Shown: piece by piece, positions 4,842 to 47,385 of the stretch
Layout: every line of letters begins with the position of its first letter
Position numbering within the stretch: position 1 is the stretch's first letter
Notes under the pieces: generated by a model
What the model saw: only the letters and a program-made list of their open reading frames with translations
Told to the model about the DNA's origin: nothing
The model's database searches: none
Virus record (IMG/VR): IMGVR_UViG_2582581022_000007
Location: 1-48,575 of that record
Strand: one strand, 5' to 3'
Length of the DNA stretch: 48,575 nucleotides
DNA from: a virus
Taxonomy: Duplodnaviria; Heunggongvirae; Uroviricota; Caudoviricetes
Translations under genes and position numbers: made by a program

Positions 4842-4844
4842 GAT

Positions 4845-4858: not shown

Positions 4859-4861
4859 TCA

Positions 4862-5476: not shown

Positions 5477-5553
5477 TGGTGCGGCATGCAGGATTCGAAC
5501 CTGCGACCAACCGCTTAGAAGGCGGTTGCTCTATCCAACTGAGCTAATGCCAC
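5477..5553 (-). tRNA. tRNA-Arg (anticodon UCU)
   Basis: Reverse complement folds as cloverleaf: acceptor GTGGCAT/ATGCCGC, D-arm GCTC-AGTTGGAT-AGAGC, anticodon stem ACCGC/GCGGT with loop CTTCTAA, T-arm GCAGG-TTCGAAT-CCTGC, 3' ACCA. Confidence 0.85.
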
Positions 5554-29449: not shown

Positions 29450-29622
29450 CATGGCATTTTTCATGGTACTGATTTCCGGCGACGGTATATAAAACGGTAT
29501 TGGAAATTTTGTTTCTTTAAAAGTTGTTGTCAGTCAATTACTTATGTTGTCCGTAAATAATTGAGTGGGAATGATTTAACGTCTGGCAACAGCCTGCACG
29601 TAAAAGCAGTAAAGTACCTCTA

Positions 29623-29654
29623 AGCCCGCGTAACTGCGGGCTTTTTTGTTTTTG
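29623..29654 (+). terminator. rho-independent terminator after lysis cassette
   Basis: AGCCCGC-gtaact-GCGGGCT + TTTTTTGTTTTTG. Confidence 0.75.
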
Positions 29655-29880
29655 TATCTGGCACTTTCTGGCAGCTGTTAGCAACGGGAAGCACGGTTTT
29701 TTCAATGGAATTTTTGATGGTACTCTCTGGTTTCGAATTCAGGTTTGAAAAAGTACCATGTGATAAATTTCGGTTGAGTTATGGTATTTATTTTTTATAA
29801 CTCAATTAAAAACAGAGAGTTAAACAAGTTTTCTGAATTTTTTACAACATGGTATTTTTGATAAAGGAAAACAATAAAAC

Positions 29881-31071
29881 ATGTTGACTGACACCAGGCT
29901 GCGTCACCTTAAGCCGAAGGAGAAACTCTATAAAGTTAATGACCGTGATGGTCTGTATGTTGCGGTCACTCCGGCTGGAACTATTTCATTTCGTTATAAC
30001 TATTCAATAAACGGAAGACAGGAGACCGTTACTTTTGGCCGCTATGGTGTTGGAGGGATCACGCTTGCAGAAGCGCGTGAACGGCTCAATGAAGCTAAAA
30101 AAATGGTTGCCAGTGGAAGATCGCCAGCGAGGGAAAAAGCTAGAGATAAAGCTCGTATCAAAGATGCGGAGACTTTTGGTGCATGGGCTGAGAAATGGTT
30201 ACGCGGTTATCAAATGGCTGAATCGACGCGTGATATGCGGCGTTCGGTATATCAAAGGGAGTTGAAGTCAAAATTTGCGCAGCAGAAATTGACCGAGATT
30301 ACACATGAAGACTTACGCGCATTAACCGATAACATTGTCGAGAGAGGGGCACCGGCGACAGCTGTGCACGCCAGAGAGATTGTATTGCAAGTCTATCGCT
30401 GGGCTATTGAGCGCGGTCAGAAGGTTGAGAATCCCGCTGATCTGGTACGGCCTGCAAGCATAGCGAAATTTGAGCCTCGTGACAGGGCATTGACGCCAGT
30501 TGAAATTGGTCTGATGTATCGGTACATGGAACGGGTAGGAACGACGCCATCAATCAGAGCAGCGGTTAAACTTTTGCTGTTAACGATGGTACGTAAAAGT
30601 GAGCTTACTAACGCAACCTGGAACGAGATCAATTTTAGTGAGGCATTATGGACGATACCAAAGGAGAGGATGAAACGACGTAATCCACATTTGGTTTTTC
30701 TTTCCAGACAGGCAATGGATATTATGATTGCTCTCAAAACCTTTGCCGGTAGCTCTGATTTTATCCTTCCTTCGCGGTACGATTCCGATGCGCCAATGAG
30801 TAGCGCTACTTTAAACCGGGTTTTGACACTGACGTATCGTCTGGCTCAGAAAGAAGGGGACTTGTTACCTAAGTTTGGTCCCCATGACTTACGGCGTACT
30901 GCCAGCACCTTGCTACATGAGGCCGGGTACAATACTGACTGGATTGAGAAGTGCCTTGCCCATGAACAAAAGGGGGTACGAGCTGTTTATAACAAGGCTG
31001 AATATCGTGAGCAGAGGGCCGAGATGCTACAAGATTGGGCGAATATGATTGATGAATGGACTAGTAAGTAG
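29881..31071 (+). CDS. int: tyrosine recombinase/integrase, P4-type
   Basis: N-terminal arm-binding-like region (RLRHLKPKEKLYKVNDRDGLYVAV); C-terminal catalytic signature HDLRRTASTLLHEAGY...CLAHEQKGVRAVYNKAEY. Confidence 0.9.
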   Translation: MLTDTRLRHLKPKEKLYKVNDRDGLYVAVTPAGTISFRYNYSINGRQETVTFGRYGVGGITLAEARERLNEAKKMVASGRSPAREKARDKARIKDAETFGAWAEKWLRGYQMAESTRDMRRSVYQRELKSKFAQQKLTEITHEDLRALTDNIVERGAPATAVHAREIVLQVYRWAIERGQKVENPADLVRPASIAKFEPRDRALTPVEIGLMYRYMERVGTTPSIRAAVKLLLLTMVRKSELTNATWNEINFSEALWTIPKERMKRRNPHLVFLSRQAMDIMIALKTFAGSSDFILPSRYDSDAPMSSATLNRVLTLTYRLAQKEGDLLPKFGPHDLRRTASTLLHEAGYNTDWIEKCLAHEQKGVRAVYNKAEYREQRAEMLQDWANMIDEWTSK

Positions 31072-31125
31072 TTAATAATCAGTGATTTAAGTGGATATAC
31101 TTCTTTTATCTACGCCAGGAGAGCA

Positions 31126-31142
31126 ATTTTAGCCGCTAAAAT
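31126..31142. promoter_or_regulatory. 17-bp perfect palindrome ATTTTAGCCGCTAAAAT (KorB operator-like), copy 1
   Basis: Matches the TTTAGC(C/G)GCTAAA IncP KorB operator consensus as I recall it; ~55 bp upstream of gene 31195. Confidence 0.5.
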
Positions 31143-31194
31143 TTACTGAATCTTTACTGGTTTTATCTGGATTGCATAAAAAGGAAAAATAAAA

Positions 31195-31824
31195 GTGCCT
31201 GAGTTGTCTGTAATTATACAATGGATGAATCAATACCCTAAGACCGGCTGGCTATTGCTGTGTATCTATATTGCACTCGGTGTAGTTCGTCACAGAGTAA
31301 TTAATGCTGAATCTGGAAGTGTATTTCGTGGACTACTCAATCTTAGGAAGCGCCGGCTAGAGCAAATGCTGACACAGCCATATTTGAATAAAAATGCGGT
31401 CCGTCTGGCAAAGCGTGAGCTTCGTCAGCGCAGCCTTTATCGGCTCACAGGCTTGTATAATTATCGGCTGCAGGATTTGGCTGTAATAATGTGTGATCGT
31501 TATGGGTTGCGGGCTGGTTATCTCAAGCCGTGGCGTAACTGGCTCGAAGAACGGGATGGACGGATTGTGTTCAACAGGAAATGGCATTGTTTTCGCTGGC
31601 GTCTTTTTCTGGTAGGTCAGATTGTAAACACAGTTCTACTAATCTTATTCATTATGTATATAGTTTCTCATTCTTCGGCCGAAATGATCGCACCGCTTAT
31701 GTTACTCTTCATGCTTGTATGGTGGTTTCCTTGGCTAATGATCACCTCGGTACCTACCCCTAGGTGGACTCGCGAAATGGAAGTCTATCTTGAGAAATTT
31801 AACGCTGAACAGACCATGGTTTAA
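31195..31824 (+). CDS. hypothetical membrane protein
   Basis: 209 aa, several hydrophobic segments; GTG start with AAGGA RBS; flanked by palindrome copies 1 and 2. Confidence 0.45.
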   Translation: MPELSVIIQWMNQYPKTGWLLLCIYIALGVVRHRVINAESGSVFRGLLNLRKRRLEQMLTQPYLNKNAVRLAKRELRQRSLYRLTGLYNYRLQDLAVIMCDRYGLRAGYLKPWRNWLEERDGRIVFNRKWHCFRWRLFLVGQIVNTVLLILFIMYIVSHSSAEMIAPLMLLFMLVWWFPWLMITSVPTPRWTREMEVYLEKFNAEQTMV

Positions 31825-31961
31825 ACTGTTCTTTGTTACCATGCATTCAGAGTGAATTGTCAGAGTTTTGGAAGATTCCATCCTACGAGTAATACTCACA
31901 AGGTAATTCACATAATCAATAGGTTAAGTCATAAGCTTCTTGACCCTACATGAGAAGACGA

Positions 31962-31978
31962 ATTTTAGCTGCTAAAAG
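31962..31978. promoter_or_regulatory. KorB operator-like palindrome, copy 2 (ATTTTAGCTGCTAAAAG)
   Basis: One central and one terminal mismatch; flanking ~15 bp also resemble copy 1. Confidence 0.4.
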
Positions 31979-32401
31979 TTTGGGCATATTTGGACTTAAA
32001 TGCCACCGACATGATTCTAATAATTAAGCCAGTACCTAATGAGCCAAGAGAAGACAACTGTAAACGCCCCTTGGCTTAGACTTGCTTTCAGGAAAGCGAA
32101 TGCTTTTTATGGTCAGGGACAAGTAAGGGGATGAGCCATTGCATAACCATAAAACCAATTCGTTCTATGTCATTACAGATCGGCTTCAGTGATTTACTGG
32201 TGAGGTAGTATCACTGTGATCCGTTTTGCATAACGCTTACAGCTGCGCTACAAACAATAAACTATAATACTGTATTTTCAAAATCATCAATTTGAAGCAG
32301 GGTAATCGCGAAAAACCCTCGTAAGTGGCTGGTTATAATTCAATAAAGTGGATGATATTAAGACTTAAACTGCCACCATAATAGCTCGTGGATATACTAT
32401 T

Positions 32402-33373
32402 TTAAATATAAAATTCTTTCCTCACAGACGCTAAGGCCTTGGACACAGCCTGCTTTGTCATAGTTGTGTAGTGATTTTTTTCTAAAACCTGTGCGGTTTC
32501 AAACTGGTTAAAACCTTGGTGTTTTAATATGATTATTTTTTTCTTAGTATCAGTGAATTTGGAGTCAACCATTCGTCTGGCAATATTCCTAAGTTTATCT
32601 AGATCTGCTGGGGTTAAAGTTTGACCCTGCATCCACTCATGAAAATAGGTATCAATCAATATATCCCCTGTGTTTGCGTTAGCTTTATGCGGTTTAGCGC
32701 ATTGCCGTCTAAGCCTTATTAATTCTTTATTGAACTGTTCGAGAGACCGCTTTCCTTGTCTGTATTTGGGATTCCATAGACCATTGGTGAGTTTGGGCCT
32801 ATGGTCAGAACAATATCGATGACTAAGGACCTGTTTTTCATGAACGGGGAACTCATTATCGTTAGCAACAAATTCTGATATCTCACTGATCAACTTGGAA
32901 AATTCGGTTAGATTACCGCAGAACTCGCAATAACCGAGCTTACGCTGTGAATTTATAGTTACTCCTTTTGCAGGAGAGGATTTCTTCGGCCGCTTGGATG
33001 CGCACTCACTGACTAATTCAATAAGAGACTCAATCGTAGCGGTAAAGCATTTATCAAGAGAAGTTTGTTGATCTAAAGTCAGAACGAAATTACGCAAAAG
33101 AAGTCTTTGTGCCTGTACTACGACGTTTAAGCCCACTTTTTTAAGTACATCACTAAATCCTAGATTTACTCCAGAAATGTAGTCTTTATGACTTGGTGGC
33201 AGGGAATTTACATAAGCAGCTACTGCTGGATCAATAACTTCCTGTATGAGACGCAGTATTGGATACCTCCGTGAAAATATGGAGTACGGATAACTACGCT
33301 CTACAAATAATTTAATTGCAGCTGCAACTGTGAGGTCACAGCCTTCCCAGATAGTAATTTTCATGTCAACCAT
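32402..33373 (-). CDS. hypothetical regulator-like protein with Cys/His cluster and C-terminal HTH-like segment
   Basis: AT-rich ORF divergent from alpA; CEFCGN...CSDH cluster; start set at first ATG not overlapping alpA; no convincing RBS. Confidence 0.4.
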   Translation of the reverse strand: MVDMKITIWEGCDLTVAAAIKLFVERSYPYSIFSRRYPILRLIQEVIDPAVAAYVNSLPPSHKDYISGVNLGFSDVLKKVGLNVVVQAQRLLLRNFVLTLDQQTSLDKCFTATIESLIELVSECASKRPKKSSPAKGVTINSQRKLGYCEFCGNLTEFSKLISEISEFVANDNEFPVHEKQVLSHRYCSDHRPKLTNGLWNPKYRQGKRSLEQFNKELIRLRRQCAKPHKANANTGDILIDTYFHEWMQGQTLTPADLDKLRNIARRMVDSKFTDTKKKIIILKHQGFNQFETAQVLEKNHYTTMTKQAVSKALASVRKEFYI

Positions 33374-33450
33374 TTTAGCCAATGAATAGGTTTTAGCAAG
33401 TGGTAATGCTTGGCATTGTATAGGCCTGATTGGAAACAGGAGGAAGGCAG

Positions 33451-33681
33451 ATGCAAACAAAGGCACATAGCACGCTCATTAACAGAAAAACACTTCTGGA
33501 AATGATCCCATTGTCAGCCCGCACTATTTATAACCTTGAACAGCGAGGCGAGTTTCCTCGCCGTATAGCACTTACTAGTCGAAATGTTGCATGGCAGTTA
33601 TCCGAAGTGGAACAGTGGATTGCGGATCGTAAATCAGCAATGTTTAAAGCGGCCAGACCCGGTGTTGTTTTAGGTAGGTAA
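33451..33681 (+). CDS. alpA: AlpA-family transcriptional regulator (prophage CP4-57 regulatory protein type)
   Basis: ~76 aa with LLEMIPLSARTIYNLEQRGEFPRRI HTH; AGGAGGAAGG RBS before ATG 33451. Confidence 0.75.
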   Translation: MQTKAHSTLINRKTLLEMIPLSARTIYNLEQRGEFPRRIALTSRNVAWQLSEVEQWIADRKSAMFKAARPGVVLGR

Positions 33682-33686
33682 CAGCA

Positions 33687-34544
33687 ATGTCATTGAACAT
33701 AATGGAAGCATTTGAAGCTAAGCCACAACCAATTGATTACGTCTTGCCTAATTTGGCTATTGGTACTATCGGAGCGATTGTTTCTCCGGGAGGCGCTGGA
33801 AAGTCAATGCTGGCATTACAATTGGCTGTGCAGATTACTTGTGGTGTAGATCTTTTAAACTTTGGTGAATATCCGACTGGGTTGGTGGCATATTTACCTG
33901 TGGAGGACTCTGAAACCATCGTTCACCATCGTTTATATGCGTTGGGAAAATATCTAACAGCACGTCAGCAGCAGATTGTAGCTGATAAGCTACTGGTCGA
34001 ACCTTTGGTAGGGAAGTGTCCAAATATTTTCTTGCCGGATTGGAGCAACTTGATCAATGAAGTTTCAAAAGGTAGACGTTTAATAATTTTGGATACTCTT
34101 CGCCGTTTCCACCAGGAGGATGAGAATAATAGCGCAGCAATGTCCAAAGTCATTGGAAAGCTAGAAGGTATTGCTGCTGATACTGGATGTTCGATTATAT
34201 TTCTACACCATTCAAACAAAGGCGCTGCCACGATGGGGGTTGGTGATATACAGCAGGCAAGCAGGGGTAGTAGCGTCCTGGTTGATAATATACGGTGGCA
34301 ATCTTATCTGGCGGGCATGACCGCCTTGGAAGCGAAGACGTATGGTATTTCTGATGATGTTCGAGGTCAATTTGTTAGATTTGGAATAAATAAAGTAAAT
34401 TATGGAGAACGTGCGCCAGATCGTTGGTTACAGAGACATGAGGGGGGAGTATTAAAAATAACGGCGCTCAGCTCGAAGAATAATAAAAAGCTTACTAAAG
34501 AAAGAACATCTACCTGGAGTGGCGCTGACAATGACAACTGGTAA
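33687..34544 (+). CDS. RecA-fold P-loop ATPase (AAA_25/RepA-like)
   Basis: Walker A IVSPGGAGKSMLALQLA, Walker B-like RLIILDTL, IIFLHHSNK; typical partner of alpA in integrative islands. Confidence 0.6.
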   Translation: MSLNIMEAFEAKPQPIDYVLPNLAIGTIGAIVSPGGAGKSMLALQLAVQITCGVDLLNFGEYPTGLVAYLPVEDSETIVHHRLYALGKYLTARQQQIVADKLLVEPLVGKCPNIFLPDWSNLINEVSKGRRLIILDTLRRFHQEDENNSAAMSKVIGKLEGIAADTGCSIIFLHHSNKGAATMGVGDIQQASRGSSVLVDNIRWQSYLAGMTALEAKTYGISDDVRGQFVRFGINKVNYGERAPDRWLQRHEGGVLKITALSSKNNKKLTKERTSTWSGADNDNW

Positions 34545-35313
34545 TAAAGTGGCACCCACAAGTACAGCTTGGCAAGCCCGAGTAATTCTGTACCAGCCAA
34601 GCCAGCGTCCTAAGGAGGTGAAGGGACAATGGATGGAGACTAGTTTTGGTCGTTGTCGTGTTACCGGACGGCTCGGACAGCGTCATGCCGATATCGTAGA
34701 GACAATATTATATGTTGCCGAGCAACGTCGTGAAATTTCTGATGGTGGAATCGAATTATTAGTAGATCCAGCGAAAGTACGCCGAACGCTATCCGATGCA
34801 CAATACAGTTATGGTCGTATACAGAAATTGCTTTTAGATCTGCGCGTCGCAACAGTTGAAATTATAACGCCAGAGCTGGAGAAAAGCGGCGACTGTATAA
34901 TAGGGGGACTGATCGATCATGTAGTGCCATCACCTATGACGCGTCCAGATCCTTTGACTGGGGGAGAACGCCGTTTATGGCGTGTCCGTCTGGGTGTTGC
35001 ATTAGCGATGTTACTCAAAAAAGATTTGCCATTTTATTATCATCCTGGCCCCATAGCTCGGCTACAACATGGTATTAGCCAGGCAGTCGCTCGTCATGTC
35101 TTAACCCATAGTAATAATCCTTTAGGAGGGTGGTATATGGATACGTTGATATTAGCAGTATGCGGTGAAGGAACGAGTAATATGACTTTACGTAACTATC
35201 GTCGGAGATTGAAAGAAGATTCCGTGCAATTGCTGGAAATTGGAATTGATTTGAACGGTTCTAGGATAAAACGTGTCACAACGGCCCGATATTGTGTCAC
35301 AACGGCCCGATAG
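34519..35313 (+). CDS. hypothetical protein, possibly replication-associated (3' end overlaps iteron array)
   Basis: 264-aa ORF; last ~40 nt lie within 21-bp iterons; start codon uncertain (GTG 34519 or ATG 34531). Confidence 0.35.
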   Translation: MALTMTTGNKVAPTSTAWQARVILYQPSQRPKEVKGQWMETSFGRCRVTGRLGQRHADIVETILYVAEQRREISDGGIELLVDPAKVRRTLSDAQYSYGRIQKLLLDLRVATVEIITPELEKSGDCIIGGLIDHVVPSPMTRPDPLTGGERRLWRVRLGVALAMLLKKDLPFYYHPGPIARLQHGISQAVARHVLTHSNNPLGGWYMDTLILAVCGEGTSNMTLRNYRRRLKEDSVQLLEIGIDLNGSRIKRVTTARYCVTTAR

Positions 35314-35356
35314 CGTGTTATAGCGGCCCGGTAGCGTGCTACAGCGGCCCGATTTT
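35273..35356. repeat. iteron-like array, 4 tandem 21-bp repeats (GTGTCACAACGGCCCGATATT and variants)
   Basis: Units at 35273, 35294, 35315, 35336 share GTG-yyAyAgCGGCCCGrTa core; followed by AT-rich region with GATC sites. Confidence 0.7.
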
Positions 35357-35564
35357 TTACTATTCAGCAGTATTTACAGGATCGTTCAGGATCTACAGTC
35401 TTTGAAATCACCTGCCTGAGCAGGCGCTTTCAAATCTAGAATCGGCCAAAGGCCGATGGTTGTACGCCAGAAGAAGAGATTACTTACTCGTTTGGTATAT
35501 TGACACTTGAGGTAGGTTTTATGACATATGAGGTACGCCCCTAGCTTTAGGCATAGGGAGGAAG

Positions 35565-35581
35565 ATTTTAGCCGCTAAAAT
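35565..35581. promoter_or_regulatory. KorB operator-like perfect palindrome ATTTTAGCCGCTAAAAT, copy 3
   Basis: Identical 17-mer to copy 1; ~400 bp upstream of mobC-like gene. Confidence 0.5.
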
Positions 35582-35970
35582 CTGCAATGCACATGCTTTG
35601 ACAATGTAAGTAAAAAAGTGCATGAGAAAATAAAATATTTCTTACAATATATCGAAACATAAATACAGTTGGTGGACGCCCATTTATAACTACTAAAGGT
35701 CATTTTCAAAAGGGAGAAATATAGTTTCCTTGCAAGAAACACATTTGCTGCAGATCTTTACCCGAGTAATCCTATATTAATACGCTAAGAAAACACATCC
35801 TGTACACTGAAATACACATTGATGTGCACAGATATACTACGGCAACAGGAGGGCAGGACATGTAAAGTAGGCCCACCGCTACGGTGTTCCAACTTTACCA
35901 CTCCCTATTCGCCGCATCGCGGCTCAAGGGCGTCCTGCTCTGCCAGGCTACCGCCTGTATGGAGAGCTAT

Positions 35971-36324
35971 ATGAAAGTTACTCAGACTAGAAAAAATAGT
36001 ACGCCAATAAAAGTTTATTGTTTACCCGAAGAAAAAATTCTCATCCAAGAAAATGCAGAAGCATCTGGATTAAGTGTTGCCTGTTTTGTTCGTAGAGTTG
36101 CAATGGGTTATCAGGTTGATTCTATCGTAGATATAAAACAGGTTAATGAACTTAGCCGAGTAAACGCTGATCTTGGAAGACTTGGCGGATTACTTAAATT
36201 ATGGCTCGCAAATGATCCTCGAACAGTTGATTTTTCACCCACCCTGATAAGAACCTTGCTTGCGAAAATAGAATCAACTCGGCAAGAACTAAGGAACATT
36301 ATGGATAAAATCTTGGATAAATAA
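35971..36324 (+). CDS. MobC-like ribbon-helix-helix mobilisation accessory protein (putative)
   Basis: 117 aa from ATG 35971 (GGAGAG RBS); IKVYCLPEEKILIQENAEASGLSVACFVRRVAMG resembles relaxosome RHH proteins. Confidence 0.45.
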   Translation: MKVTQTRKNSTPIKVYCLPEEKILIQENAEASGLSVACFVRRVAMGYQVDSIVDIKQVNELSRVNADLGRLGGLLKLWLANDPRTVDFSPTLIRTLLAKIESTRQELRNIMDKILDK

Positions 36325-36405
36325 ATGTGTGGTTTCCTATATACCTGCGTCTGTTAAAAGACAGTGTGTTAAATATTACTGAACTGATGAAAAAGAGGTG
36401 AGCAA

Positions 36406-37200
36406 ATGAATTTAATGTTCCGAGTGGTTTCATTACAAAGAGGGATTTTAGCCGCTAAAAAAGCTTTAATAGTTCCTTTCGTGGCGTCCGTCATGGCATT
36501 ACCGGTTAAGGCCGGAATTCCCGTTATTGATGGCACTAATGTGGTTCAGACCACAATCAGCGCAGTTAACAACGTTCAGGCTGTGACTAAACAGATCCAG
36601 CAGTACCAGACGCAGCTGCAGCAGTATGAAAACATGCTCAAAAATACCGTCGCACCTGCGGCCTATATCTGGGATCAGGCCAATTCAACCATCAACAAAT
36701 TGTTGCAGGCGCAGGACACTCTTAATTACTACAAAAATCAGGCCGGGAGTCTTGATTCATATCTGAAACGTTATCAGGACGTGAATTACTACCGCTCATC
36801 ACCGTGCTTTAACAGTAATGTTGAATGTACTGCAGATGAAATCAGCGCACTGCGTAAAGCAGAACAGAACAGCTCTGAGGCGCGTAAAAAGGCCAATGAC
36901 GCCGTTTTTAAGGCTCTTGATGAACAGCAAGAAACACTGCAAAGCGATGCTGATAACCTGGCAGATTTGCAAACTCAGGCAACCGGCGCACAAGGGCAAA
37001 TGGAAGCTATTCAGGCCGCTAACCAGCTTGCAAGTGCTCAAACGAACCAGCTGCTGCAAATCCGCTCGCTCCTGGTAGCCCAGCAAAACGCTGCAGCAAC
37101 ACTGGCACAGGCTCAGGCAGATAAAGAATCACAACAGATAGCCGCTGATGAAAAAGCGTTAGCTGGAGAGAATACACCAAGCCCGAAGCGAATTTGGTGA
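36406..37200 (+). CDS. trbJ: TrbJ/VirB5-like type IV secretion protein
   Basis: Signal peptide, Q-rich coiled-coil (QIQQYQTQLQQYENMLKNT), ~260 aa, followed by small lipoprotein and TrbL-like gene as in IncP trbJ-trbK-trbL. Confidence 0.6.
   Translation: MNLMFRVVSLQRGILAAKKALIVPFVASVMALPVKAGIPVIDGTNVVQTTISAVNNVQAVTKQIQQYQTQLQQYENMLKNTVAPAAYIWDQANSTINKLLQAQDTLNYYKNQAGSLDSYLKRYQDVNYYRSSPCFNSNVECTADEISALRKAEQNSSEARKKANDAVFKALDEQQETLQSDADNLADLQTQATGAQGQMEAIQAANQLASAQTNQLLQIRSLLVAQQNAAATLAQAQADKESQQIAADEKALAGENTPSPKRIW
36445..36461. promoter_or_regulatory. KorB operator-like palindrome, copy 4 (ATTTTAGCCGCTAAAAA), inside trbJ 5' end
   Basis: 16/17 palindrome; encodes ILAAK within the putative signal peptide. 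Confidence 0.4.
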
Positions 37201-37211
37201 GGAAACGCAGA

Positions 37212-37385
37212 ATGAAAGATAATCTTTTGATTGTATTTATTCTGATCAGTTTATTGGCCATATGTTCTTGCGATAAAAATGATAAAGATTGTTTATCGAC
37301 GCCAGATAATAAATTTGATGAAAATAAATACGATAAATGTGCTCTACGGAGTAATAATAAACCAAGCCCTAAACGAGAATGGTAA
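37212..37385 (+). CDS. trbK: small lipoprotein, TrbK-like (entry exclusion) by position
   Basis: MKDNLLIVFILISLLAICSC signal/lipobox-like N-terminus, 57 aa, between trbJ-like and trbL-like genes. Confidence 0.45.
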   Translation: MKDNLLIVFILISLLAICSCDKNDKDCLSTPDNKFDENKYDKCALRSNNKPSPKREW

Positions 37386-38779
37386 TCATGAAAATAGCAA
37401 GTAAGCTCACCTTTCTAGGTATCATAATTTTCTTTTCTATAAATGCCTATGCTGGTCAATTAGATAGTAGCGGGCTACTTGATTCTTTATTAGATAAGTT
37501 TCAACAAGTAGCCAGTACATGGACAACAGTAATTGCTGACTATGCAAATTGGCTCTTCTGGGGGCTGGTATTAATAAGTATGGTTTGGACATTTGGTATG
37601 ATGGCAATGCAAGGAGAAGGGTTGACAGGCGTACTTGCTGAAATAGTTCGCTTTTTTGCCGTCATTGGTTTTTTTTATTATCTTTTAATCAACGGCCCAT
37701 CCATATCGCAATCCATAATTAATTCAATGAGGCAACTTGCAGCAAACGCTTTAGGAATAAGTACTGGTATTTCGCCCTCAAGCATAGTTGATATGGCGTT
37801 TGCGATATTAACAAAGGTCAGTTCAGCCGCATCAATTTGGTCGCCAATGATATCCACCATTATGATAACAGTAGCGATAATCGTTTTGGTAGTGATGTCC
37901 CTTATAGCGATAAATATGCTAATCATGTTGGTTTCTGCATGGGTGTTATGTTATGCAGGAGTTATATTGCTTGGATTTAGTGGTTCGAAATGGACCTCTG
38001 ATATAGCAATTAATTACTTACGAACTGTTTTATCGATTGGCATTCAATTATTCACGATGACATTAATTATTGGGATTGGACAATCATTTATAGATCAATA
38101 TTTTTCTCTTATTAAAGATGATGTTCCTGATCTTAATAGTCTTATCGTTTTGCTTCTGGCGTCAATTATCCTGTTAGTATTAACGAATAAGCTACCACTG
38201 TTGTTATCAGGTGTTGTAGGAGGAGCTTCTTTACAAGGGATTGGTGGATTTGGGGCGGGTATGATTACTGGCGCTGCCGCTACTGCCATCAGCGGTGCTG
38301 GAGCAATTGCAATGGGGGCATCAGCTCAAGTCAGCGGCGGAGCCTCTGCATTAAAGGCAGCGTTCGAGTCTGCGCAAGCTGCCATGGCCGAGGAATCTGG
38401 TTCAGGTGGTGGAGGCGGTTCCGGTGGAGGATTTGGCGTCGGGGAAGATACCGGTTCTGTAGATACTTCTGGAGGCCAACCCTCAGGCAGTTCCGGTGGT
38501 TCGTCAGCATGGAGCAGTTCAGTTAGCTCCAGCGGAGGAAGTCAGGGGTTTGCTTCATTCTCACGAGCTGGCCGCATGGCAAGCCATATGGGAAGCATCA
38601 TGGCCAACGGAGCTGCTGAGTACCAGAAAATGAAGCGAAGTAGCAATTCTTCTCGTGTCCAACAAACTATTGGAGGGGAGTTGGCGACTCAGATACGTAA
38701 GCAGACAGCTACTCATCGGGATAACCGCGAACATGATGATTTTGCCGATGATAGCTTATCGGGTAATAATAAATCTTGA
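37379..38779 (+). CDS. trbL: TrbL/VirB6-like polytopic membrane protein
   Basis: 466 aa, many transmembrane segments, Gly/Ser-rich C-terminal tail (SGSGGGGGSGGGFGVGEDTGS). Confidence 0.65.
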   Translation: MVIMKIASKLTFLGIIIFFSINAYAGQLDSSGLLDSLLDKFQQVASTWTTVIADYANWLFWGLVLISMVWTFGMMAMQGEGLTGVLAEIVRFFAVIGFFYYLLINGPSISQSIINSMRQLAANALGISTGISPSSIVDMAFAILTKVSSAASIWSPMISTIMITVAIIVLVVMSLIAINMLIMLVSAWVLCYAGVILLGFSGSKWTSDIAINYLRTVLSIGIQLFTMTLIIGIGQSFIDQYFSLIKDDVPDLNSLIVLLLASIILLVLTNKLPLLLSGVVGGASLQGIGGFGAGMITGAAATAISGAGAIAMGASAQVSGGASALKAAFESAQAAMAEESGSGGGGGSGGGFGVGEDTGSVDTSGGQPSGSSGGSSAWSSSVSSSGGSQGFASFSRAGRMASHMGSIMANGAAEYQKMKRSSNSSRVQQTIGGELATQIRKQTATHRDNREHDDFADDSLSGNNKS

Positions 38780-38860
38780 ATCATGTGCGTCAGTTAACGA
38801 GGTAGCGTGAGCTGACGCTTTCACTGTGCGAACTTTACTCCTGCAATTCAAAGGAAAAAC

Positions 38861-39325
38861 ATGTCCAGGACTCCCTATACACGGTTACGTATTGAGGGCT
38901 TCCGCAAAGCAGAGGCTTCCCTGAGACTTGAAGGAATGGACCCCAGTGGTACGCCACTGTACGAGTCCATTAAGGCACGTATTATTTCAGGTGAACTGAC
39001 GTATGAGCAGGGGCGTTCAGAGATTCTTACATACTACACAAAAGCAGATACTGACGGGCCTGTGACAGTGGGAGAGATGCTGGTAGAGGAATTTTTAAAA
39101 CCGCTGAACATGTCTCATGATGAACTGGCGGAAGCTATGGGTATCTGCAAGCAGTATATTGACGATATTATCTGCGGTTTGCGTCGTCTTACGGATGATG
39201 AGGCTCGCGTTCTTGCTGTCATATTTGGTACTGATGAGGACTTTTGGAGTAACCTTCAAAAGTTGCAAGATTGCAAGGAAAACCAAGTAAGTAGCCTTCG
39301 TCCACTTCGTGTTAGACCATGCTAG
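38861..39325 (+). CDS. HigA-like XRE-family HTH protein with N-terminal VbhA/FicA-like SxxxEG motif region
   Basis: C-terminal VGEMLVEEFLKPLNMSHDELAEAMGICKQYIDDIICGLRRLTDDEARVLAVIFGTDEDFWSNLQ matches HigA antitoxin HTH pattern; N-terminal ASLRLEGMDPSG has the (S/T)xxxE(G/N) motif. Confidence 0.55.
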   Translation: MSRTPYTRLRIEGFRKAEASLRLEGMDPSGTPLYESIKARIISGELTYEQGRSEILTYYTKADTDGPVTVGEMLVEEFLKPLNMSHDELAEAMGICKQYIDDIICGLRRLTDDEARVLAVIFGTDEDFWSNLQKLQDCKENQVSSLRPLRVRPC

Positions 39326-39514
39326 CTGCTCTTCACATGTCATGAATGTTAGAATATTTGTTCAAAGTCATTTCTTCAGAGCAAAATTTTTAATAGCGGA
39401 TAGAAAAATGCAAGGTATGTTGGAAAAATAAACGAAGCGAGTACGCAAACGTCTTGAAATGCAGTAACATCATTCCGCCACACTGGCAGTTGGCTAACGG
39501 CGAAAGGAGTTCAT

Positions 39515-40747
39515 GTGAGCCAAGAAGATGATGATAAGTATCCAGCTAGCGCCGTATCCTCATGGAGCGGCTTCGTTTATCAAGGGAAAATTGCATTATA
39601 TCACTCCCTCAAGATTATTCACGATGGCGATCTAGACTTTGAGCTTCAGCTAGACAGTAGTGACGACTTCGCTATTTATAAAAATGGAAAACTACACACA
39701 GCCCATCAAGTCAAAGCGAAGATAAGTAAATATCGAAGTGGTTACACCAAGGCGCTGGAACAGTCTACTTTAATCGAACACGACAAAATCCAAGGGACAA
39801 CGCGTTACTTCCATGTATCTGTTCCTCTAAATAATACGGACGATCATAGAGGCGCTAGCGGAGAAATAGTAAAATTCTATCGCTATGGGGATAATTATTA
39901 TTGTGGTTTGGGTGAAATTGAAGGGCTTACCAAAGAACTAATAAAAAAAATATGTAATAAGCAGCACATCATTGTCAGTGATAACCTTATAAATTTTAAC
40001 TATTGTTTACTTTCTGAAAAAATCAGCACCAAGGCAATATACAATCATAAATTAAATCAGGTTGGCGGAATTTCAGAAAACAGAGCAGCATATGAGGGTC
40101 GTATCAAGGCCAGAAATATTCTAGAAGACCTGCTAACCGAAAACCCCTATCAGAATAGGGACTACTATGCAGTTGCATTAAAGGCCAGGCTTCAAACTCA
40201 TCTGGAAGAGAGGTTGGATCAGGCGCTTCCAACAATGAGTGACACTACTTACGAGAGAGCTAGATGTCTGTGTGAGCACATTCGCGAAACTCATATCAAT
40301 GAATTGAAAGCCCTATGCCAGATGATGAAGCCCTCCGAGCGATTTCAAGACGTTCAGACGAACGACATCAGGCGATACACCAAGCTTATCCAGGCTATTT
40401 CGGTGGAGCCTATATTCAACCACCTCCCACACTACCTTGACAGCGAAAATCGATTTTACGTACCTACCGCTCTTGATGTAGATGAAAGCGAAGAGTGTGA
40501 GTTTGACATGACCCGTGAAATGAAAAACAACGGGGATCTGCTGAGACTACTTTTTGAGTATAACCATCTAATCGCCAGCAAAGCAGAAGCCTCATTCACC
40601 TTTAATACAAAATTTACAAACTCAGATGACTTCGACAACAAGCAGACCACTGAAAAGCTCGAAAGCAACATCACCAAGTCGCTATGCATTAGCGTGATAA
40701 CAAAAGACGATGCGGAGGAACGACTGAATGATAAAGCAACTCATTGA
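39515..40747 (+). CDS. candidate defence effector, LmuA-like (N-terminal PD-(D/E)xK-like nuclease motifs)
   Basis: GTG start with AAAGGAG RBS; GFVYQGKIALYHS...DLDFELQLDSSDDF...HQVKAK suggests D...D...(E/Q)xK nuclease; first gene of coupled operon. Confidence 0.45.
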   Translation: MSQEDDDKYPASAVSSWSGFVYQGKIALYHSLKIIHDGDLDFELQLDSSDDFAIYKNGKLHTAHQVKAKISKYRSGYTKALEQSTLIEHDKIQGTTRYFHVSVPLNNTDDHRGASGEIVKFYRYGDNYYCGLGEIEGLTKELIKKICNKQHIIVSDNLINFNYCLLSEKISTKAIYNHKLNQVGGISENRAAYEGRIKARNILEDLLTENPYQNRDYYAVALKARLQTHLEERLDQALPTMSDTTYERARCLCEHIRETHINELKALCQMMKPSERFQDVQTNDIRRYTKLIQAISVEPIFNHLPHYLDSENRFYVPTALDVDESEECEFDMTREMKNNGDLLRLLFEYNHLIASKAEASFTFNTKFTNSDDFDNKQTTEKLESNITKSLCISVITKDDAEERLNDKATH

Positions 40748-41393
40748 TGAAGCACTTGTTGCACATGGCTTTGTTAGTAAACGCGACTTGGACAACACAA
40801 GCTTTTATATTCGCGAGTCTGGATCTGCTATCAGGTTTGCAGTTCTATATAATCTTGATGACCTTCCTGACCCAGCCGAATTGAATAATAGAATCAATCA
40901 TCTTGCTCCTAGTGAATTTCTCAGAAACCCAAGCTTTAAGAAAAACTGCGACTTGATTTGTATTTATCGTCTTGATGTTCTGGCCAATTTCAAAGATCAC
41001 GAAGAAGAGATTTTCGCAATTGAAGAAGATCCGCACTTCTATAAAAAGTATGTTCTCTATTACAGTATCGCGGAAGAAAGTGCACTCACTAATTTCACCT
41101 ACGACAAACTGGTATCTGTTATTGCTGACAAAAAAGAATTTCTTGAATACAAAGAAAATCCTCTTAACGCCACACAATACAGCTTTGCGGCGAAGACCTT
41201 TATCAAGCTTCCTTTTTTAGAGTTACCTAACCATCAAGAAAATCTTGTGTCCTTGAGGTTACAGGCAGCAGAGGCCGTTGCACAAGCCAGCCTGAACGAT
41301 ACGTATTTGACTATCCAGAAAGTCACAGATAAAAACGCCGACGAAATTATCAAGGAAATGATTAAAAATGAACTGGCAAATATCCAAGATTGA
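40728..41393 (+). CDS. small middle-gene protein of the operon (LmuC-like by position)
   Basis: 221 aa; overlaps upstream gene by 20 nt and downstream gene by 26 nt; GGAGGA RBS. Confidence 0.45.
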   Translation: MIKQLIDEALVAHGFVSKRDLDNTSFYIRESGSAIRFAVLYNLDDLPDPAELNNRINHLAPSEFLRNPSFKKNCDLICIYRLDVLANFKDHEEEIFAIEEDPHFYKKYVLYYSIAEESALTNFTYDKLVSVIADKKEFLEYKENPLNATQYSFAAKTFIKLPFLELPNHQENLVSLRLQAAEAVAQASLNDTYLTIQKVTDKNADEIIKEMIKNELANIQD

Positions 41394-43701
41394 AGTCTCT
41401 AGCTTCAAAGCTTTCAAGCATATCTATTTGGATCTTGACAAGTCGTCTTTGCTAACTCTGGACGGCCCTAACGGTTATGGTAAAACAAGCATATTCGACG
41501 CAATCGAACTATTGCTTACCGGCCAGATCAGTCGAATACAAAATCTATTCAAGACATTACTAACCAAGAACAAGAGAGACTACGCGGACAATCTTTTCTG
41601 GAATAGTCGCTCAGGAGAGAACGATCTCTGCATTAAGATTGAATTTACTAATGATGGTCGCAAACTTGTCTTAGCTAGACATTGCCAAGCTGCAATATTC
41701 AAAAAACCAGTAAACAATCGTGCAGACAAATACGAAAATTTCAAGCTTTATGAGCTGCCAGAATTCGAATCGTCTGAATTCACTAAGATCAATCTGCGCG
41801 ATAATAATTTCCTTGATGAAATTTTCGGAAAGAATTTCAGGGAAAACTTCTCCTTTCTTAACTATTTGGAGCAAGGGCAAAACCGGCTGTTACACACTCG
41901 GGTAGACGAACGGAAGGATAAACTAGGAAACCTATTTAATATCAGTGATATCGAAGCCGAGATTGAAAACTGCAACACTGTATACAGCAAACTCACAAGG
42001 TACATCAATAATCCTGAACGCACGGCAAAAGCTGCATCTCTTATTGAAGAAATAGCCATCCTAAAGGACACATTGCAGGCAGTGGCTGGGAACATTAAGT
42101 ACAAAAAACTCTCGACGACTGATGTCCAACCGGGGTGGGACAAGGAGATAATGTTCTCTACGTATTCGTCAGTGGACCATGCAGCCTACCAGGAATCAGT
42201 TCGTAAGATTATTGCCCTTCTACCACTCAAAGCCACGATAAAAACTAGGGTCCATAACGAGAGAATTGATGCCTACATCGGTCGTAATGAGGAATCTCTG
42301 AGAAGTCTGGCGCAGTTTGGTAAAGACCTGGGCAAGCTTGATGTGCTTGACGCTATCAAGAAAGGGATTGATGAGTTAGAACGTTCAGCAAGTATCATTA
42401 AACGTGGTGCTACGGTGATCAAGCTCGAAGAAGCTCGTTCATTACAAGGTTGGGCGGGTGGGCGTCTTGAGTGGTTTGAGTTACAAATTAATTCTCGAAA
42501 CAGCTTACAAGTAAAAAGTAGCGCCAACACGAACGTTGTAGCCGAATTGGAACGTCTAAAAAGGCAGTTACTTAGGGAACATAAAAAGTCTTATCCCGAC
42601 GAGCAGTTGTGCCCTCTCTGTGGTGCTGACTGGGAAGATCACAAATTAATGGCAGATGCTATTGAAGCAAGAACTAAGCAGATCTCTGAATCATTAGGAC
42701 AGGACGGTAAGGACTTAGTTAACCTTATCGCTGCTATGGACGCAGAGCTGAAACTTATCGACTCCTTTATACAAGACAGCCTGAAACTCCTTACGCCTAC
42801 ATTTGAATCGAACCTTCATGTAGGGCTGACCAGAATTAAGCTTCGGCTCCCGGCAATAACCCAAGTACTGGAAAAGCTGCAAAGCGAAAATATTCAATTT
42901 ACTGATTCATTCACGGAAATTGATGACTTAGTAGATGAGCGACTTGAAAAGCTCAAAGAGATTCTAAGAAATAAAAAACAGGTTGAGGCTGATGCCTTAA
43001 CGCTGCCGGAGGACTGGCGAGAAACCATAAATAGCTCTTTTAAAGATCTGCAGGACTTCTACATAGTCACGGCTGAAGACCTAAAGGGTAAAGAGCATTA
43101 CATATCGATTAAAGCTAACGAGGCTCAAAGTTCTAGGCTCCAAACTTGTATTAAAGATCTTAATCTTATCGAAAAAGAAACCATGGCAGCTCAAAAAGCA
43201 CAAGGTAAAATCGAAAAGCTCCGCAACACTTTGAAAAAGACCGAGCAGAACTATACTGACCAAACAATTTCGGCTATTGAGTTCATATTCCACATTTATA
43301 GTGGTCGGCTGATCCAAAACTACCAGCGTGGCCTGGGCCTGTTTATTGAGAGCCGCGAAGGTACGCAACTGAGGTTCCTGACTGCTGAGAAGTCTGAACA
43401 CGACGCAGTCATGTCCATGAGTTCAGGTCAGGTGTCTGCGCTCAGCCTTGCTTTCTTCCTCGCGCTCAACAAAGTCTATGCACGGGTTCCTCTCATATTG
43501 ATTGACGACCCGTCGCAATCACTGGATGAAGTAAACGTTGCTTCGTTGACCGATCTACTCCGTTGCGAACTCAAACATTGCCAGTTGGTTGTCTCATCGC
43601 ACGAGGACGATATCTCGGCCTATATGCGCTACCGGTTCGACAGAGCCGGTTTGACAACAAGTTCGCTCAACATGCAGCTTTTGGCGAAAGAAGCTTCGTA
43701 A
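41368..43701 (+). CDS. SMC/Rad50-like ABC ATPase with mid-protein CxxC (zinc-hook-like); LmuB-like
   Basis: Walker A GPNGYGKTS (res ~33-41), CPLCG near res ~415 in long charged helix-rich middle, C-terminal SGQVSALSLAF signature, LILIDDP Walker B, SSHED. Confidence 0.75.
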   Translation: MNWQISKIEVSSFKAFKHIYLDLDKSSLLTLDGPNGYGKTSIFDAIELLLTGQISRIQNLFKTLLTKNKRDYADNLFWNSRSGENDLCIKIEFTNDGRKLVLARHCQAAIFKKPVNNRADKYENFKLYELPEFESSEFTKINLRDNNFLDEIFGKNFRENFSFLNYLEQGQNRLLHTRVDERKDKLGNLFNISDIEAEIENCNTVYSKLTRYINNPERTAKAASLIEEIAILKDTLQAVAGNIKYKKLSTTDVQPGWDKEIMFSTYSSVDHAAYQESVRKIIALLPLKATIKTRVHNERIDAYIGRNEESLRSLAQFGKDLGKLDVLDAIKKGIDELERSASIIKRGATVIKLEEARSLQGWAGGRLEWFELQINSRNSLQVKSSANTNVVAELERLKRQLLREHKKSYPDEQLCPLCGADWEDHKLMADAIEARTKQISESLGQDGKDLVNLIAAMDAELKLIDSFIQDSLKLLTPTFESNLHVGLTRIKLRLPAITQVLEKLQSENIQFTDSFTEIDDLVDERLEKLKEILRNKKQVEADALTLPEDWRETINSSFKDLQDFYIVTAEDLKGKEHYISIKANEAQSSRLQTCIKDLNLIEKETMAAQKAQGKIEKLRNTLKKTEQNYTDQTISAIEFIFHIYSGRLIQNYQRGLGLFIESREGTQLRFLTAEKSEHDAVMSMSSGQVSALSLAFFLALNKVYARVPLILIDDPSQSLDEVNVASLTDLLRCELKHCQLVVSSHEDDISAYMRYRFDRAGLTTSSLNMQLLAKEAS

Positions 43702-43856
43702 AAGCCACCTTGGCCACCTATTAGAGCGGGTGGCTAAATTTAGTGTTTCACTACAAATAGCATAAAAGGATGCAAAAATTCGGCGAATTTATTCCACGTG
43801 TTTTTTTAAATTCAATGTATGTTAAAATTGTGTCTATTTTATATCAGGATTGTCAA

Positions 43857-45918: not shown

Positions 45919-47385
45919 TTAATCCTCCATCATGCGTTTTAATCGCATTAAGGCTGATAGCGAAATTTCATTGCCTAGCTGTTCTTCTACGTCAGAAAAG
46001 CTCTTGCCTTTCACTCTATCGTAGAGTTTTTCTGAAAGTCTTATTTCAGTATCTTCCTGAAAGATAAACTGTGAAATAGAATCTACAGTTGCTCCAAATG
46101 TCGGTAACCTCGGTTTATCAGTTACGAGCCTGTGATCTGATATTGAGAGAACAGCTACCTGTTCATTTGATACTTCACGGACAAAATACGCCGAATGAGT
46201 TGCTATAAGTGCCTGTGAGCCTGTTTTTTCTAATAGGAAGTCTAGTAGTCCTATAAAATCAACAATCATGTTAGGATGCATGTGCGTTTCAGGTTCATCC
46301 ATCAATACAAACGTACCGTTTTCAATGAACAAGCAACTCAGTAAAGCAACCTTAAAGAAGGTTAACTGCCCGCTACTAAGCGGGTAGAGTCCGTCGCCTC
46401 TTTTTAATTTAGGGTCTAGGTTGTGCTCAATACTAGCCCAACGCATCAAAGAATCTTGCTCTCCGTTTCCTTGTAAAAAACTCCATAGATTGATTGTTCG
46501 TTCATTTTTTAACTGTAAAAAGATATTTCTAGGGTCTAATCCTGCTTGGTAAAGTGAATCCAAAAAAAGGTTTTTTCGAGTATTTTCACCAATCTCATCT
46601 GCACTTCTCGCTAATTGTACGAGGCAATCACCAATATTATGTGTCCCTTTTCGAGTCAGATTTAACCGTCTATAGTAAAGCTTCTGTGTCGCTCTTCTTT
46701 CAGGGGGAAACGTGTTTGAGGTTTCACCAGGTGTCGCTATTGCGATAATACGATTGATTAGAGGTCGTTTACCGTCATCGTCAACCAGTGACAACCCTTT
46801 ATCTTTATATTGCAGTGCCCCTCGGCAAAATGCTTTAAGCGACTCGCTTTTACCAACACCATTTTTACCTATCAACACAAAAATTCGCTTCGGTATGATA
46901 CTTTGGTGGTTGTATTTTAATGACAGTTGATGAAGCTCTTCAAAACCATCTAACTGGAACTTAAGTTCTAACGAGTTGGATATAGCTACATCACTTTTTA
47001 GCTCTTCTCCAATAATAATACTGTTAGCATTGTGATAAGCGAAGAACGGCTCGGAGTTACGCATGAAACCAAGTTTAAATACTTCAGTATCAATGGCTTT
47101 TCTTACCCATTTTTCATCAGTGTCTTTATATTGAGAAAGATCATTTACTGTACGTAAGAATAGTTCGGCTCCTTCGCGGCCAAACCCGTCGTAAAGGTCT
47201 CGGTAGCTTTGCATGTCAGGTAACAAAGTAAAAAATGGAGGAAGGTCCTCTGAATAAACAACCTCTTTATCAGCCTTTTTTAGGTACTCCCATAGCGTTT
47301 CTTTTTTTTCATAAAAGAGAAGCTCTTCCTCTTTGTTTTCTATGTTATCTGGAGCCATAAAGCCAATTAACATTGAGCCTTCCAT
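45919..47385 (-). CDS. ABC-type/AAA_21-like ATPase (PtuA-like) with ~170-aa N-terminal extension
   Basis: Walker A IGKNGVGKS at res ~173-180, signature LSSGQLTFFKVALL, Walker B FVLMDEPETHMHP, H-loop IATHSAYF. Confidence 0.75.
   Translation of the reverse strand: MEGSMLIGFMAPDNIENKEEELLFYEKKETLWEYLKKADKEVVYSEDLPPFFTLLPDMQSYRDLYDGFGREGAELFLRTVNDLSQYKDTDEKWVRKAIDTEVFKLGFMRNSEPFFAYHNANSIIIGEELKSDVAISNSLELKFQLDGFEELHQLSLKYNHQSIIPKRIFVLIGKNGVGKSESLKAFCRGALQYKDKGLSLVDDDGKRPLINRIIAIATPGETSNTFPPERRATQKLYYRRLNLTRKGTHNIGDCLVQLARSADEIGENTRKNLFLDSLYQAGLDPRNIFLQLKNERTINLWSFLQGNGEQDSLMRWASIEHNLDPKLKRGDGLYPLSSGQLTFFKVALLSCLFIENGTFVLMDEPETHMHPNMIVDFIGLLDFLLEKTGSQALIATHSAYFVREVSNEQVAVLSISDHRLVTDKPRLPTFGATVDSISQFIFQEDTEIRLSEKLYDRVKGKSFSDVEEQLGNEISLSALMRLKRMMED

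Follow-up and report, generated by a model that had tools for sequence, protein, structure and literature searches.

The PIME family of integrative mobilizable elements was defined by Perta et al. in January 2026 (bioRxiv 10.64898/2026.01.12.698999), with an alpA/luxR pair as the hallmark of PIME1 and with GIsul2, BcenGI2 and the 'IncP island' as its relatives. In that study, PIME1MmNCTC12028 of Morganella morganii exhibited excision, approximately 8-fold amplification and mobilisation that depended on an IncP helper plasmid. A repA-oriV clone, with four iterons downstream of repA, rescued a temperature-sensitive plasmid, and mutation of either repA or the replication origin (oriV) abolished the rescue. 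PIME1EcRHB23-C07 was described as having an IncP-like origin of transfer (oriT) with a 17-bp inverted repeat, and an E. coli PIME1 element was induced but not mobilised by pB10 or pKJK5. The inducing signal was said to be unknown, and the copy number of the helper (pB10) was reduced when the island replicates. The text of the preprint neither mentions a gene between repA and the iterons nor assigns a role to one (10.64898/2026.01.12.698999). Here we have analysed a stretch of 48,575 nucleotides (the window; IMG/VR virus record IMGVR_UViG_2582581022_000007, positions 1 to 48,575), in which an island of the PIME1 type carries four 21-bp repeats at the end of a 260-codon open reading frame (ORF260). 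This array is very probably the oriV iteron set of a PIME1-type element located at the 3' end of guaA, and is most likely bound by the ORF260 protein.

Small plasmids with an IncQ-type helicase form a second group for comparison. A comparative study from 2020 (PMC7557826) reported that the IncQ-3 cluster III plasmids pJF-707, pUL3AT and p435_c4 lack repC, and speculated that repC is dispensable or supplied in trans. The iteron oriV of the PIME1 family was, as outlined above, essentially described in the preprint (10.64898/2026.01.12.698999). What sequence comparison adds is a mis-annotated 260-residue protein as the probable initiator, a set of candidate recognition residues, and a link to plasmids that were reported as repC-less.

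The iteron array and the gene that it overlaps

The genes and repeats at the core of the locus are the following.

33687..34544, + strand: repA, an IncQ (RSF1010)-type hexameric replicative helicase (Pfam AAA_25, E 2.7e-29; PDB 1G8Y, RSF1010 RepA, E 1.2e-112)
34531..35313, + strand: rep (ORF260), probable iteron-binding initiator with two predicted winged-helix domains (alternative GTG start at 34519)
35270-35290, + strand: iteron unit 1, AACGTGTCACAACGGCCCGAT
35291-35311, + strand: iteron unit 2, ATTGTGTCACAACGGCCCGAT
35312-35332, + strand: iteron unit 3, AGCGTGTTATAGCGGCCCGGT
35333-35353, + strand: iteron unit 4, AGCGTGCTACAGCGGCCCGAT

A first-pass annotation of the window had noted four head-to-tail 21-bp repeats beginning inside the 3' end of an open reading frame, and had proposed them as a replication origin. 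The repeats were recovered by Tandem Repeats Finder (TRF) at 35272-35353, with a period of 21, 3.9 copies, 83% matches and a score of 101. The best score in 100 dinucleotide-preserving shuffles of the window was 60 (period of at least 10), and 101 was reached in 0/100. In the register of the family the four units are those given above, with units 1 and 2 overlapping the last 14 codons of the reading frame at 34531(34519)-35313. Four units of 21 bp agree with the format of iteron origins, i.e. at least three direct repeats of approximately 17-22 bp in helical phase. No further iteron copies were found across the rest of the window, including a possible operator upstream of repA. The prophage part of the window contains a perfect 23-bp x 2.3 tandem repeat (TGCGCCGCCCGGCGCCCTGGTCG, 2363-2408, TRF score 106).

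A scan with one genome per species gave 80 related loci from gamma-, beta- and alpha-proteobacteria. In almost all of them the start of the ORF260 gene is overlapped by the AAA_25 repA gene, by approximately 11 nt (14 nt in the window). A chain of at least two 21-bp units, mostly exactly four, is situated at or across the stop codon of the ORF260 gene in 72/79 loci, and in most loci the array starts between -43 and +1 relative to that stop. Since the start varies around the stop codon, the repeat must be a feature of the DNA and not a protein repeat. The consensus over 56 distinct loci is AGCGT[G/C][T/G/C]CACA[C/G/A]C[C/G]GCCCGAT, where positions 6, 7, 12 and 14 are variable and CACA and GCCCG are invariant. 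Thus, the repeats are neither lost nor erratic in copy number among relatives, nor separated from replication genes, and the origin proposed in the first-pass annotation gains support both from this conservation and from the replication of the homologous fragment in the preprint (10.64898/2026.01.12.698999).

The several substitutions in units 3 and 4, and the overall identity of 83%, might be taken to indicate a functionless tandem duplication at a gene end, arisen by chance or decaying. The shuffles argue against such an origin of the repeats, and conservation refutes it: the array keeps its place, its period and its number of units in three proteobacterial classes as well as on plasmids, and the CACA...GCCCG core does not vary. 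We give this reading practically no credence.

In the M. morganii element an ORF260 homolog of 67% identity separates repA from the four iterons, and the repA-oriV fragment of the preprint must therefore have contained that homolog. Homologs are also present on eight plasmids, mostly of 5-9 kb, and in six of these the match also spans an annotated repA helicase gene. On pSMBC31-5K (5.7 kb), pJF-707 (8.3 kb), pUL3AT (9.0 kb; NC_017097.1) and a Citrobacter plasmid (5.2 kb) the ORF260-family gene is the sole initiator candidate among the annotated genes. In the three plasmids for which the sequence was checked (pSMBC31-5K, pJF-707 and the Citrobacter plasmid), four 21-bp repeats begin at most 2 nt after the stop codon of the homolog. 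The repeat is AGCGTGGCACACCCGCCCGAT in pSMBC31-5K and AGCGTGGCACAGCGGCCCGAT in pJF-707, and the Citrobacter plasmid, whose homolog is 40% identical, carries four perfect copies of a different 21-bp unit, GTGTAGCATATTCCTGTTCGT. Contrary to the repC-less picture, both pJF-707 and pUL3AT have an ORF260-family gene (61% identity to ORF260) directly after repA. The plasmid homologs are named 'ABC transporter ATPase' in RefSeq. The same cassette of rep260 and iterons is present on pSMBC31-5K, which is not among the plasmids treated in PMC7557826.

ORF260 as candidate initiator

A word-indexed search retrieved 616 homologs of ORF260, with 449 cluster representatives at 50% identity, many of them likewise named 'ABC transporter ATPase'. 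No Pfam domain was found in 98 members of the family, neither Rep_3 (PF01051) nor RepC (PF06504) being among their matches, and ORF260 itself gave no matches against PDB (single sequence and profile), Pfam or NCBIfam. On the other hand, the predicted structure has the two-domain WH1-WH2 (winged helix 1 and 2) fold of the Rep_3 / Pi-RepE initiators, to which ORF260 does not belong by sequence (PF01051). ORF260 is thus predicted to share the WH1-WH2 architecture of iteron initiators despite lacking a sequence-level family. A Foldseek search of the model against PDB gave nothing significant. ORF260 was also considered as a divergent IncQ RepC, and this was rejected (BLASTP E 5.9; hhalign probability 10.9% over the C-terminal 122 columns), while a remote kinship of its C-terminal winged helix to RepC is possible.

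The protein columns were compared with the variable iteron bases over the 56 loci, and the most informative columns cluster on two helices of the model. Iteron base 6 is G in 33/33 loci with R225, and C or T, never G, where residue 225 is Y, S, T, L, D or H. The same base is C in 17/17 loci with K218. Base 7 is G in 20/20 loci with D222, T or C with N222, and A with A222. On helix 217-229, the predicted recognition helix of WH2, residues 218, 222 and 225 share one face. Base 14 follows residue 96 in 56/56 loci, being G where the residue is R (26 loci) and C where it is Q or H (30 loci); residues 95, 98 and 102 are the next most informative for this base and are found, together with residue 96, in the WH1 helix 94-106. 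On a neighbour-joining tree with Fitch parsimony, residue 225 changes on 13/110 branches, and the changes of base 6 fall on these branches in 10/10 cases, with about 1.2 expected. Base 14 changed twice on the tree, both times together with Q to R at residue 96. The DNA specificity of ORF260 appears to be readable from a few residues, the pairs being R225 and G (base 6), D/N222 and G/T (base 7), and R/Q96 and G/C (base 14).

Natural exchanges of the replication module were also informative. In GIsul2 (pIP40a), alpA and a RepA 62% identical to that of the island are followed by an IncQ-type RepC (PF06504), and an array of unrelated sequence (22 bp x 2.9) begins within the last part of repC. ORF260 has no BLASTP similarity to the GIsul2 RepC (hhalign probability 10.9%). 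Many other E. coli elements at guaA have an initiator of the RepA_C family (PF04796) with a third kind of 21-bp array in the same slot. Conversely, RepA clades of 35-96% identity accompany one and the same iteron family. Taken together, these observations mean that the type of repeat tracks the initiator gene and not the helicase.

In many E. coli guaA islands, among them that of E. coli 1223 (locus positions 3931-6004), alpA and a RepA_C (PF04796) initiator with its own 21-bp x 2.6 array replace the alpA-repA-rep260-iteron cassette. The flanks of the replaced cassette, traJ included, remain approximately 94% identical, and replacement between such flanks indicates a modular exchange of rep-ori cassettes.

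The wording 'repA-oriV' of the preprint may also be read as RepA alone being the initiator, with ORF260 as an accessory protein or a regulator of copy number for which binding to the repeats would not be required. In favour of this, deletion of repA strongly reduces amplification and the repA-mutant clone does not replicate (10.64898/2026.01.12.698999), and ORF260 is without a sequence-level family. However, the clone would include the ORF260 homolog, and a repA deletion may be polar on the overlapping gene. Moreover, RepA is closely related to the helicase of RSF1010, and in IncQ plasmids that helicase is not the iteron binder. One iteron family with RepA clades of such diverse identity, the unrelated iterons and RepC that accompany the RepA of GIsul2, and the residue-base covariation that maps onto helices of ORF260 all argue in the same direction. 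We therefore regard initiation by RepA alone as unlikely.

The repeats could instead form an operator or a centromere-like site, for autoregulation of repA and rep, as a roadblock before traJ, or for partition. Iteron arrays commonly serve also in autoregulation and handcuffing, and the array does overlap the 3' end of its own gene. The KorB-operator sequences in the island (see below) make partition-type interactions plausible. However, no par genes are linked to the array, and the best structural matches of the ORF260 model are initiators bound to iterons. On plasmids of 5-9 kb the cassette is the sole candidate initiator and origin among annotated genes, and the homologous region is needed for replication (10.64898/2026.01.12.698999). 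A regulatory role may coexist with an origin but does not replace it, and as a substitute for the origin it seems to us very unlikely.

The spacer and a model of initiation

Between the array and traJ lies a 618-bp spacer with the following features.

35354..35400: candidate unwinding/helicase-entry stretch, 65% AT, almost no self-structure (fold energy -1.1 kcal/mol)
35401-35415/35420-35434: inverted repeat with 15-nt arms TTTGAAATCACCTGC and GCAGGCGCTTTCAAA (DNA fold -8.7 kcal/mol, z -3.25)
35441..35469: 7-bp stem with 3-nt loop, ATCGGCC-AAA-GGCCGAT (35441-35457), followed by GGTTGTACGCCA (z -3.72)
35494..35535, + strand: two 21-bp direct repeats, GGTATATTGACACTTGAGGTA and GGTTTTATGACATATGAGGTA, seen in 24/71 loci
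35563-35583: palindrome containing the KorB-operator match at 35567-35579
35594-35673: most AT-rich stretch of the spacer, 72-78% AT, beginning 240 bp downstream of the last iteron

An AT-rich stretch with GATC sites and short hairpins had been noted after the array in the first-pass annotation. The hairpins are present (35401-35434, 35441-35457 and 35563-35583). The AT-richness is partly so: AT content is 65% over the 40 bp that adjoin the array and 58% in the spacer as a whole, and marked AT-richness is confined to 35594-35673. GATC is not enriched (3 in 800 bp, with 2.9 expected), but the two GATC sites noted lie inside the conserved motif CAGGATC, which is repeated 10 bp apart (35377-35383 and 35387-35393). 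CAGGAT[C/A] occurs two to three times with a spacing of 9-10 bp, and at most 40 bp from the last iteron, in 57/71 loci and in pSMBC31-5K and pJF-707. By analogy with IncQ and P1/oriC-type origins, the CAGGATC stretch is a candidate site for melting and helicase entry.

The stem-loop ATCGGCC-NNN-GGCCGAT with GGTT..ACGCCA is found 80-125 bp after the array in approximately 40/71 loci, and its stem is kept through a few symmetric changes among the loci. It is also found in GIsul2, and since GIsul2 has a different initiator, the hairpin is independent of the type of initiator. It may serve in priming or loading, or as a palindrome bound by a protein. A correspondence to the IncQ ssiA/ssiB sites was rejected at the sequence level, as an RSF1010-type plasmid (22-bp x 3.5 iterons) has no similar hairpin or tail. 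The window and GIsul2 have TTGACACTTGAGG in common within the direct repeats at 35494-35535. A consensus scan of 35200-36100 found no promoters or terminators.

From these elements a scheme for replication of the island may be proposed. Excision would come first, in response to IncP helper plasmids, as published for relatives. Monomers of ORF260 would then bind the four iterons, the 21-bp spacing placing them on one face of the helix. The C-terminal recognition helix (residues 217-229) would read iteron bases ~6-7, and bases ~12-14 would be read by helix 94-106, the third of the N-terminal winged-helix domain. Binding would open the adjacent stretch at 35354-35400 with its CAGGATC repeats, where the co-translated RepA helicase would be loaded. 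The scheme would thus be an IncQ-like replication in which a Rep protein that looks unrelated to RepC takes over its role. The model does not explain priming, which is its weakest part: no primase can be recognised among the island genes, and host DnaG and the TraC of the helper are both guesses.

Several points weigh against this scheme. The evidence for replication comes from a 67%-identical homolog, in a preprint that credits repA and leaves the second gene unmentioned. The profile-profile match between ORF260 and IncQ RepC is weak, at 10.9%, and confined to the C-terminal half. Covariation at base 14 consists of two independent changes only, the tree was made from the same alignment as the covariation, and long branches favour coincident changes. 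The location of the unwinding site is uncertain, since the stretch adjoining the iterons is only 65% AT and no DnaA box (TTATCCACA) with up to two mismatches was found at 35200-36000. DnaA boxes are not universal, however, and IncQ origins do not need DnaA. Finally, no primase domain or IncQ-type ssi site was found among the scanned open reading frames of the island and in the origin sequence.

On balance, we consider it likely that the ORF260 proteins (approximately 450 clusters at 50% identity, with no Pfam model) are a hitherto unrecognised family of iteron initiators with two winged helices. They would replace RepC in IncQ-type replicons, both in the PIME1/'IncP island' elements and in small resistance plasmids such as pJF-707 and pUL3AT, with a specificity that is readable from residues and with KorB operators next to oriV. 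If so, a likely initiator can be named for the replicon of hundreds of mobilizable islands, many with anti-phage systems, and of plasmids carrying GES carbapenemases. The 'missing repC' of the IncQ-3 plasmids pJF-707 and pUL3AT would be filled, a widespread mis-annotation would be corrected, and replicon typing could recognise these replicons. In addition, the covariation provides directly testable specificity swaps for an iteron-initiator pair.

The island, its transfer origin and comparison with known systems

The remaining features of the island that are discussed here are the following.

32402-33466, - strand: 354-residue 'LuxR-family' gene, divergent from alpA (RefSeq name from E. coli M8, no Pfam match)
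33430..33681, + strand: alpA, AlpA-family regulator (Pfam Phage_AlpA, E 7.5e-13; RefSeq annotation of the 99.5% identical E. coli M8 copy)
35567..35579: perfect match to the IncP KorB operator, TTTAGCCGCTAAA; one of the 'hairpins' of the first-pass annotation
35848..35960: IncP-type oriT, collinear with the traK-traJ intergenic regions of IncP-1 pB11 and pDS1, with the M. morganii element and with GIsul2
35972..36324, + strand: traJ, oriT-binding relaxosome protein (Pfam NikA-like, E 1.3e-22; NCBIfam TraJ equivalog, 159 bits with a cut-off of 134)

Hence alpA and a RecA-fold ATPase do lie upstream of the array, as first annotated, and the ATPase is now specified as an IncQ-type replicative helicase, while the gene after the array, taken then for mobC-like, is traJ.

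The window from position 1 to approximately 29550 is a prophage with tail genes, a tail spike (24937-27648), a holin, a CHAP endolysin and a DUF2514 spanin-like gene. A 15-bp copy of the guaA 3' end is found at 29560-29574. The prophage ends approximately 110 nt before this copy, so that prophage and island stand in tandem. The region 29560-43734 aligns at 97.2% with the island directly after guaA in E. coli M8. It encodes, in order, a tyrosine integrase, a 209-residue protein, the 'LuxR-family'/alpA pair, the AAA_25 ATPase, the 260-residue protein with the array, TraJ, TrbJ, TrbL, a HigA-like protein and an ABC-3C defence system. Copies at least 99% identical occur in approximately 20-30 complete E. 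coli genomes, and related ones in approximately 200.

The island is a PIME1-type integrative mobilizable element. It has a tyrosine integrase (Int domains) at the 3' end of guaA, 29560-29574 being the last 15 bp of that gene, and a divergent pair of alpA (by Pfam) and a luxR-family gene (354 residues, by RefSeq name, with no Pfam match). It also has repA together with traJ, trbJ and trbL but no full type IV secretion system. Its oriT is IncP-like (traJ-II), with the nic region conserved and an inverted repeat, of 17 nt, that is specific to the element. Judged from its architecture and the 17-nt oriT repeat, it may be identical with PIME1EcRHB23-C07 of the preprint. That it is a mobilisable island which replicates after excision, as had been surmised, is supported through the homologous Morganella element (10.64898/2026.01.12.698999).

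The cargo includes, at 39515-43701, an ABC-three-component (ABC-3C) system with a CTD1 effector, MComp1 and an SMC-like ATPase, in keeping with the carriage of defence systems by PIMEs. Further on, at 45919-47385, a second ATPase gene (AAA_21/AAA_15) is accompanied by one for a 283-residue partner. Several E. coli copies of the island have insertion sequences of the IS3, IS2 or IS1 families within the alpA-to-traJ segment, and these could inactivate the replication or transfer module.

An oriT had been thought possible near the array, and both the alignment with IncP oriT regions and an Rfam traJ-II match (RF01760, 83.5 bits over 35851-35949) support one, outside the region first delimited. 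Its 17-nt inverted repeat has arms at 35862-35878 and 35882-35898. From the nick of RP4, the island is predicted to be nicked between 35854 and 35853 of the minus strand, between ATGTCCTG and CCC (read 5' to 3'), at a distance of 8 nt from the inverted repeat. As in IncP (RP4/pB11), GGGCAGGA, TATTCGC and TCCTGC are invariant, 8 nt separate the inverted repeat from the predicted nick and traJ follows downstream, but the arms of the inverted repeat differ (17 nt in the island) and the island has neither traK nor traI. It carries traJ but no relaxase. RF01760 is classified as a cis-regulatory RNA. Its match in the window falls on the oriT inverted repeat and nick region, and the traJ-II motif may reflect the DNA-level structure of oriT rather than RNA.

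Using the KorB operator consensus of RK2 (TTTAGCSGCTAAA), we found three perfect matches and one with a single mismatch (31128-31140; 31964-31976, 1 mismatch; 35567-35579; 36447-36459), all inside the island, with 0.04 expected by chance. The matches are embedded in a 22-nt repeat, AGAGnnATTTTAGCCGCTAAAA. Perfect syntenic sites were present in 43/86 loci, recurring after int/luxR and at the start of trbJ. IncP-1 pB11 carries the same 13-mer between trbN and trbO, within trbJ at its 5' end, and in two further intergenic regions, trfA/trbA and trbA-trbB, which correspond to the reported locations of the RP4 KorB operators OB10 and OB9. From its presence inside the pB11 trbJ 5' end, the trbJ site of the island is inherited and the intergenic ones are extra. 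The text of the preprint (10.64898/2026.01.12.698999) contains no mention of KorB. KorB, the global repressor and partition protein of the helper, may act directly on the island, and such binding might account for the sensing of the helper, for partition hitch-hiking or for the lowered copy number of pB10. The operator sequences thus suggest a route for mutual sensing or interference between IncP helper and island.

The closest described system is PIME1MmNCTC12028. It has the same gene order (guaA-int-luxR/alpA-repA-[260-residue gene]-iterons-oriT-traJ-trbJ-trbL) and an IncP-like oriT. Its four iterons, of 21 bp, likewise extend over the end of the 260-residue gene, and inverted repeats, a direct repeat and AT-rich sequence come after them. 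It differs in that its Rep homolog is 67% identical, its iterons are of the AACTCACAAAGGCCCGA type, and a putative DnaA box was reported (10.64898/2026.01.12.698999), whereas none was found in the window. Unlike PIME1MmNCTC12028, the E. coli-type element of the window has no relaxase.

GIsul2 has the same integration site and the same alpA-to-trbJ slot, with an array starting inside the 3' end of the second gene, and shares with the island the hairpin ATCGGCC..GGCCGAT-GGTT..ACGCCA, the TTGACACTTGAGG motif and the IncP-like nick region. However, its second gene is an IncQ-type RepC and its repeats (22 bp x 2.9) are of unrelated sequence.

Pi (R6K), RepE (F), RepA (pPS10) and RctB have no sequence similarity to ORF260, and none of the 98 family members matched Rep_3. 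ORF260 would work with an IncQ-type helicase encoded by the element, and not with host DnaB as do Pi/RepE-type initiators, and no DnaA box accompanies it.

Compared with IncQ (RSF1010), the hexameric RepA helicase is shared (PDB 1G8Y, E 1.2e-112), but no RepC (PF06504) was recognised by Pfam, BLASTP (E 5.9) or hhalign (10.9%), and no RepB primase or ssiA/ssiB-like sequence among the scanned open reading frames and sequence of the island. The origin follows directly after the initiator gene, and the element is integrative. Both systems have a helicase gene that runs into the initiator gene downstream of it, as well as 3.5-4 direct repeats of 20-22 bp, and presumably in both the initiator melts neighbouring DNA for RepA to enter. 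The IncQ-3 plasmids pJF-707 and pUL3AT differ from the island in being autonomous, in having a MobA/primase-like gene, and in the GC-rich palindromes of the IncQ-3 origin after the repeats. Nevertheless, pJF-707 resembles the island in having an ORF260 homolog after repA, four 21-bp repeats at its stop codon and then CAGGATA repeats.

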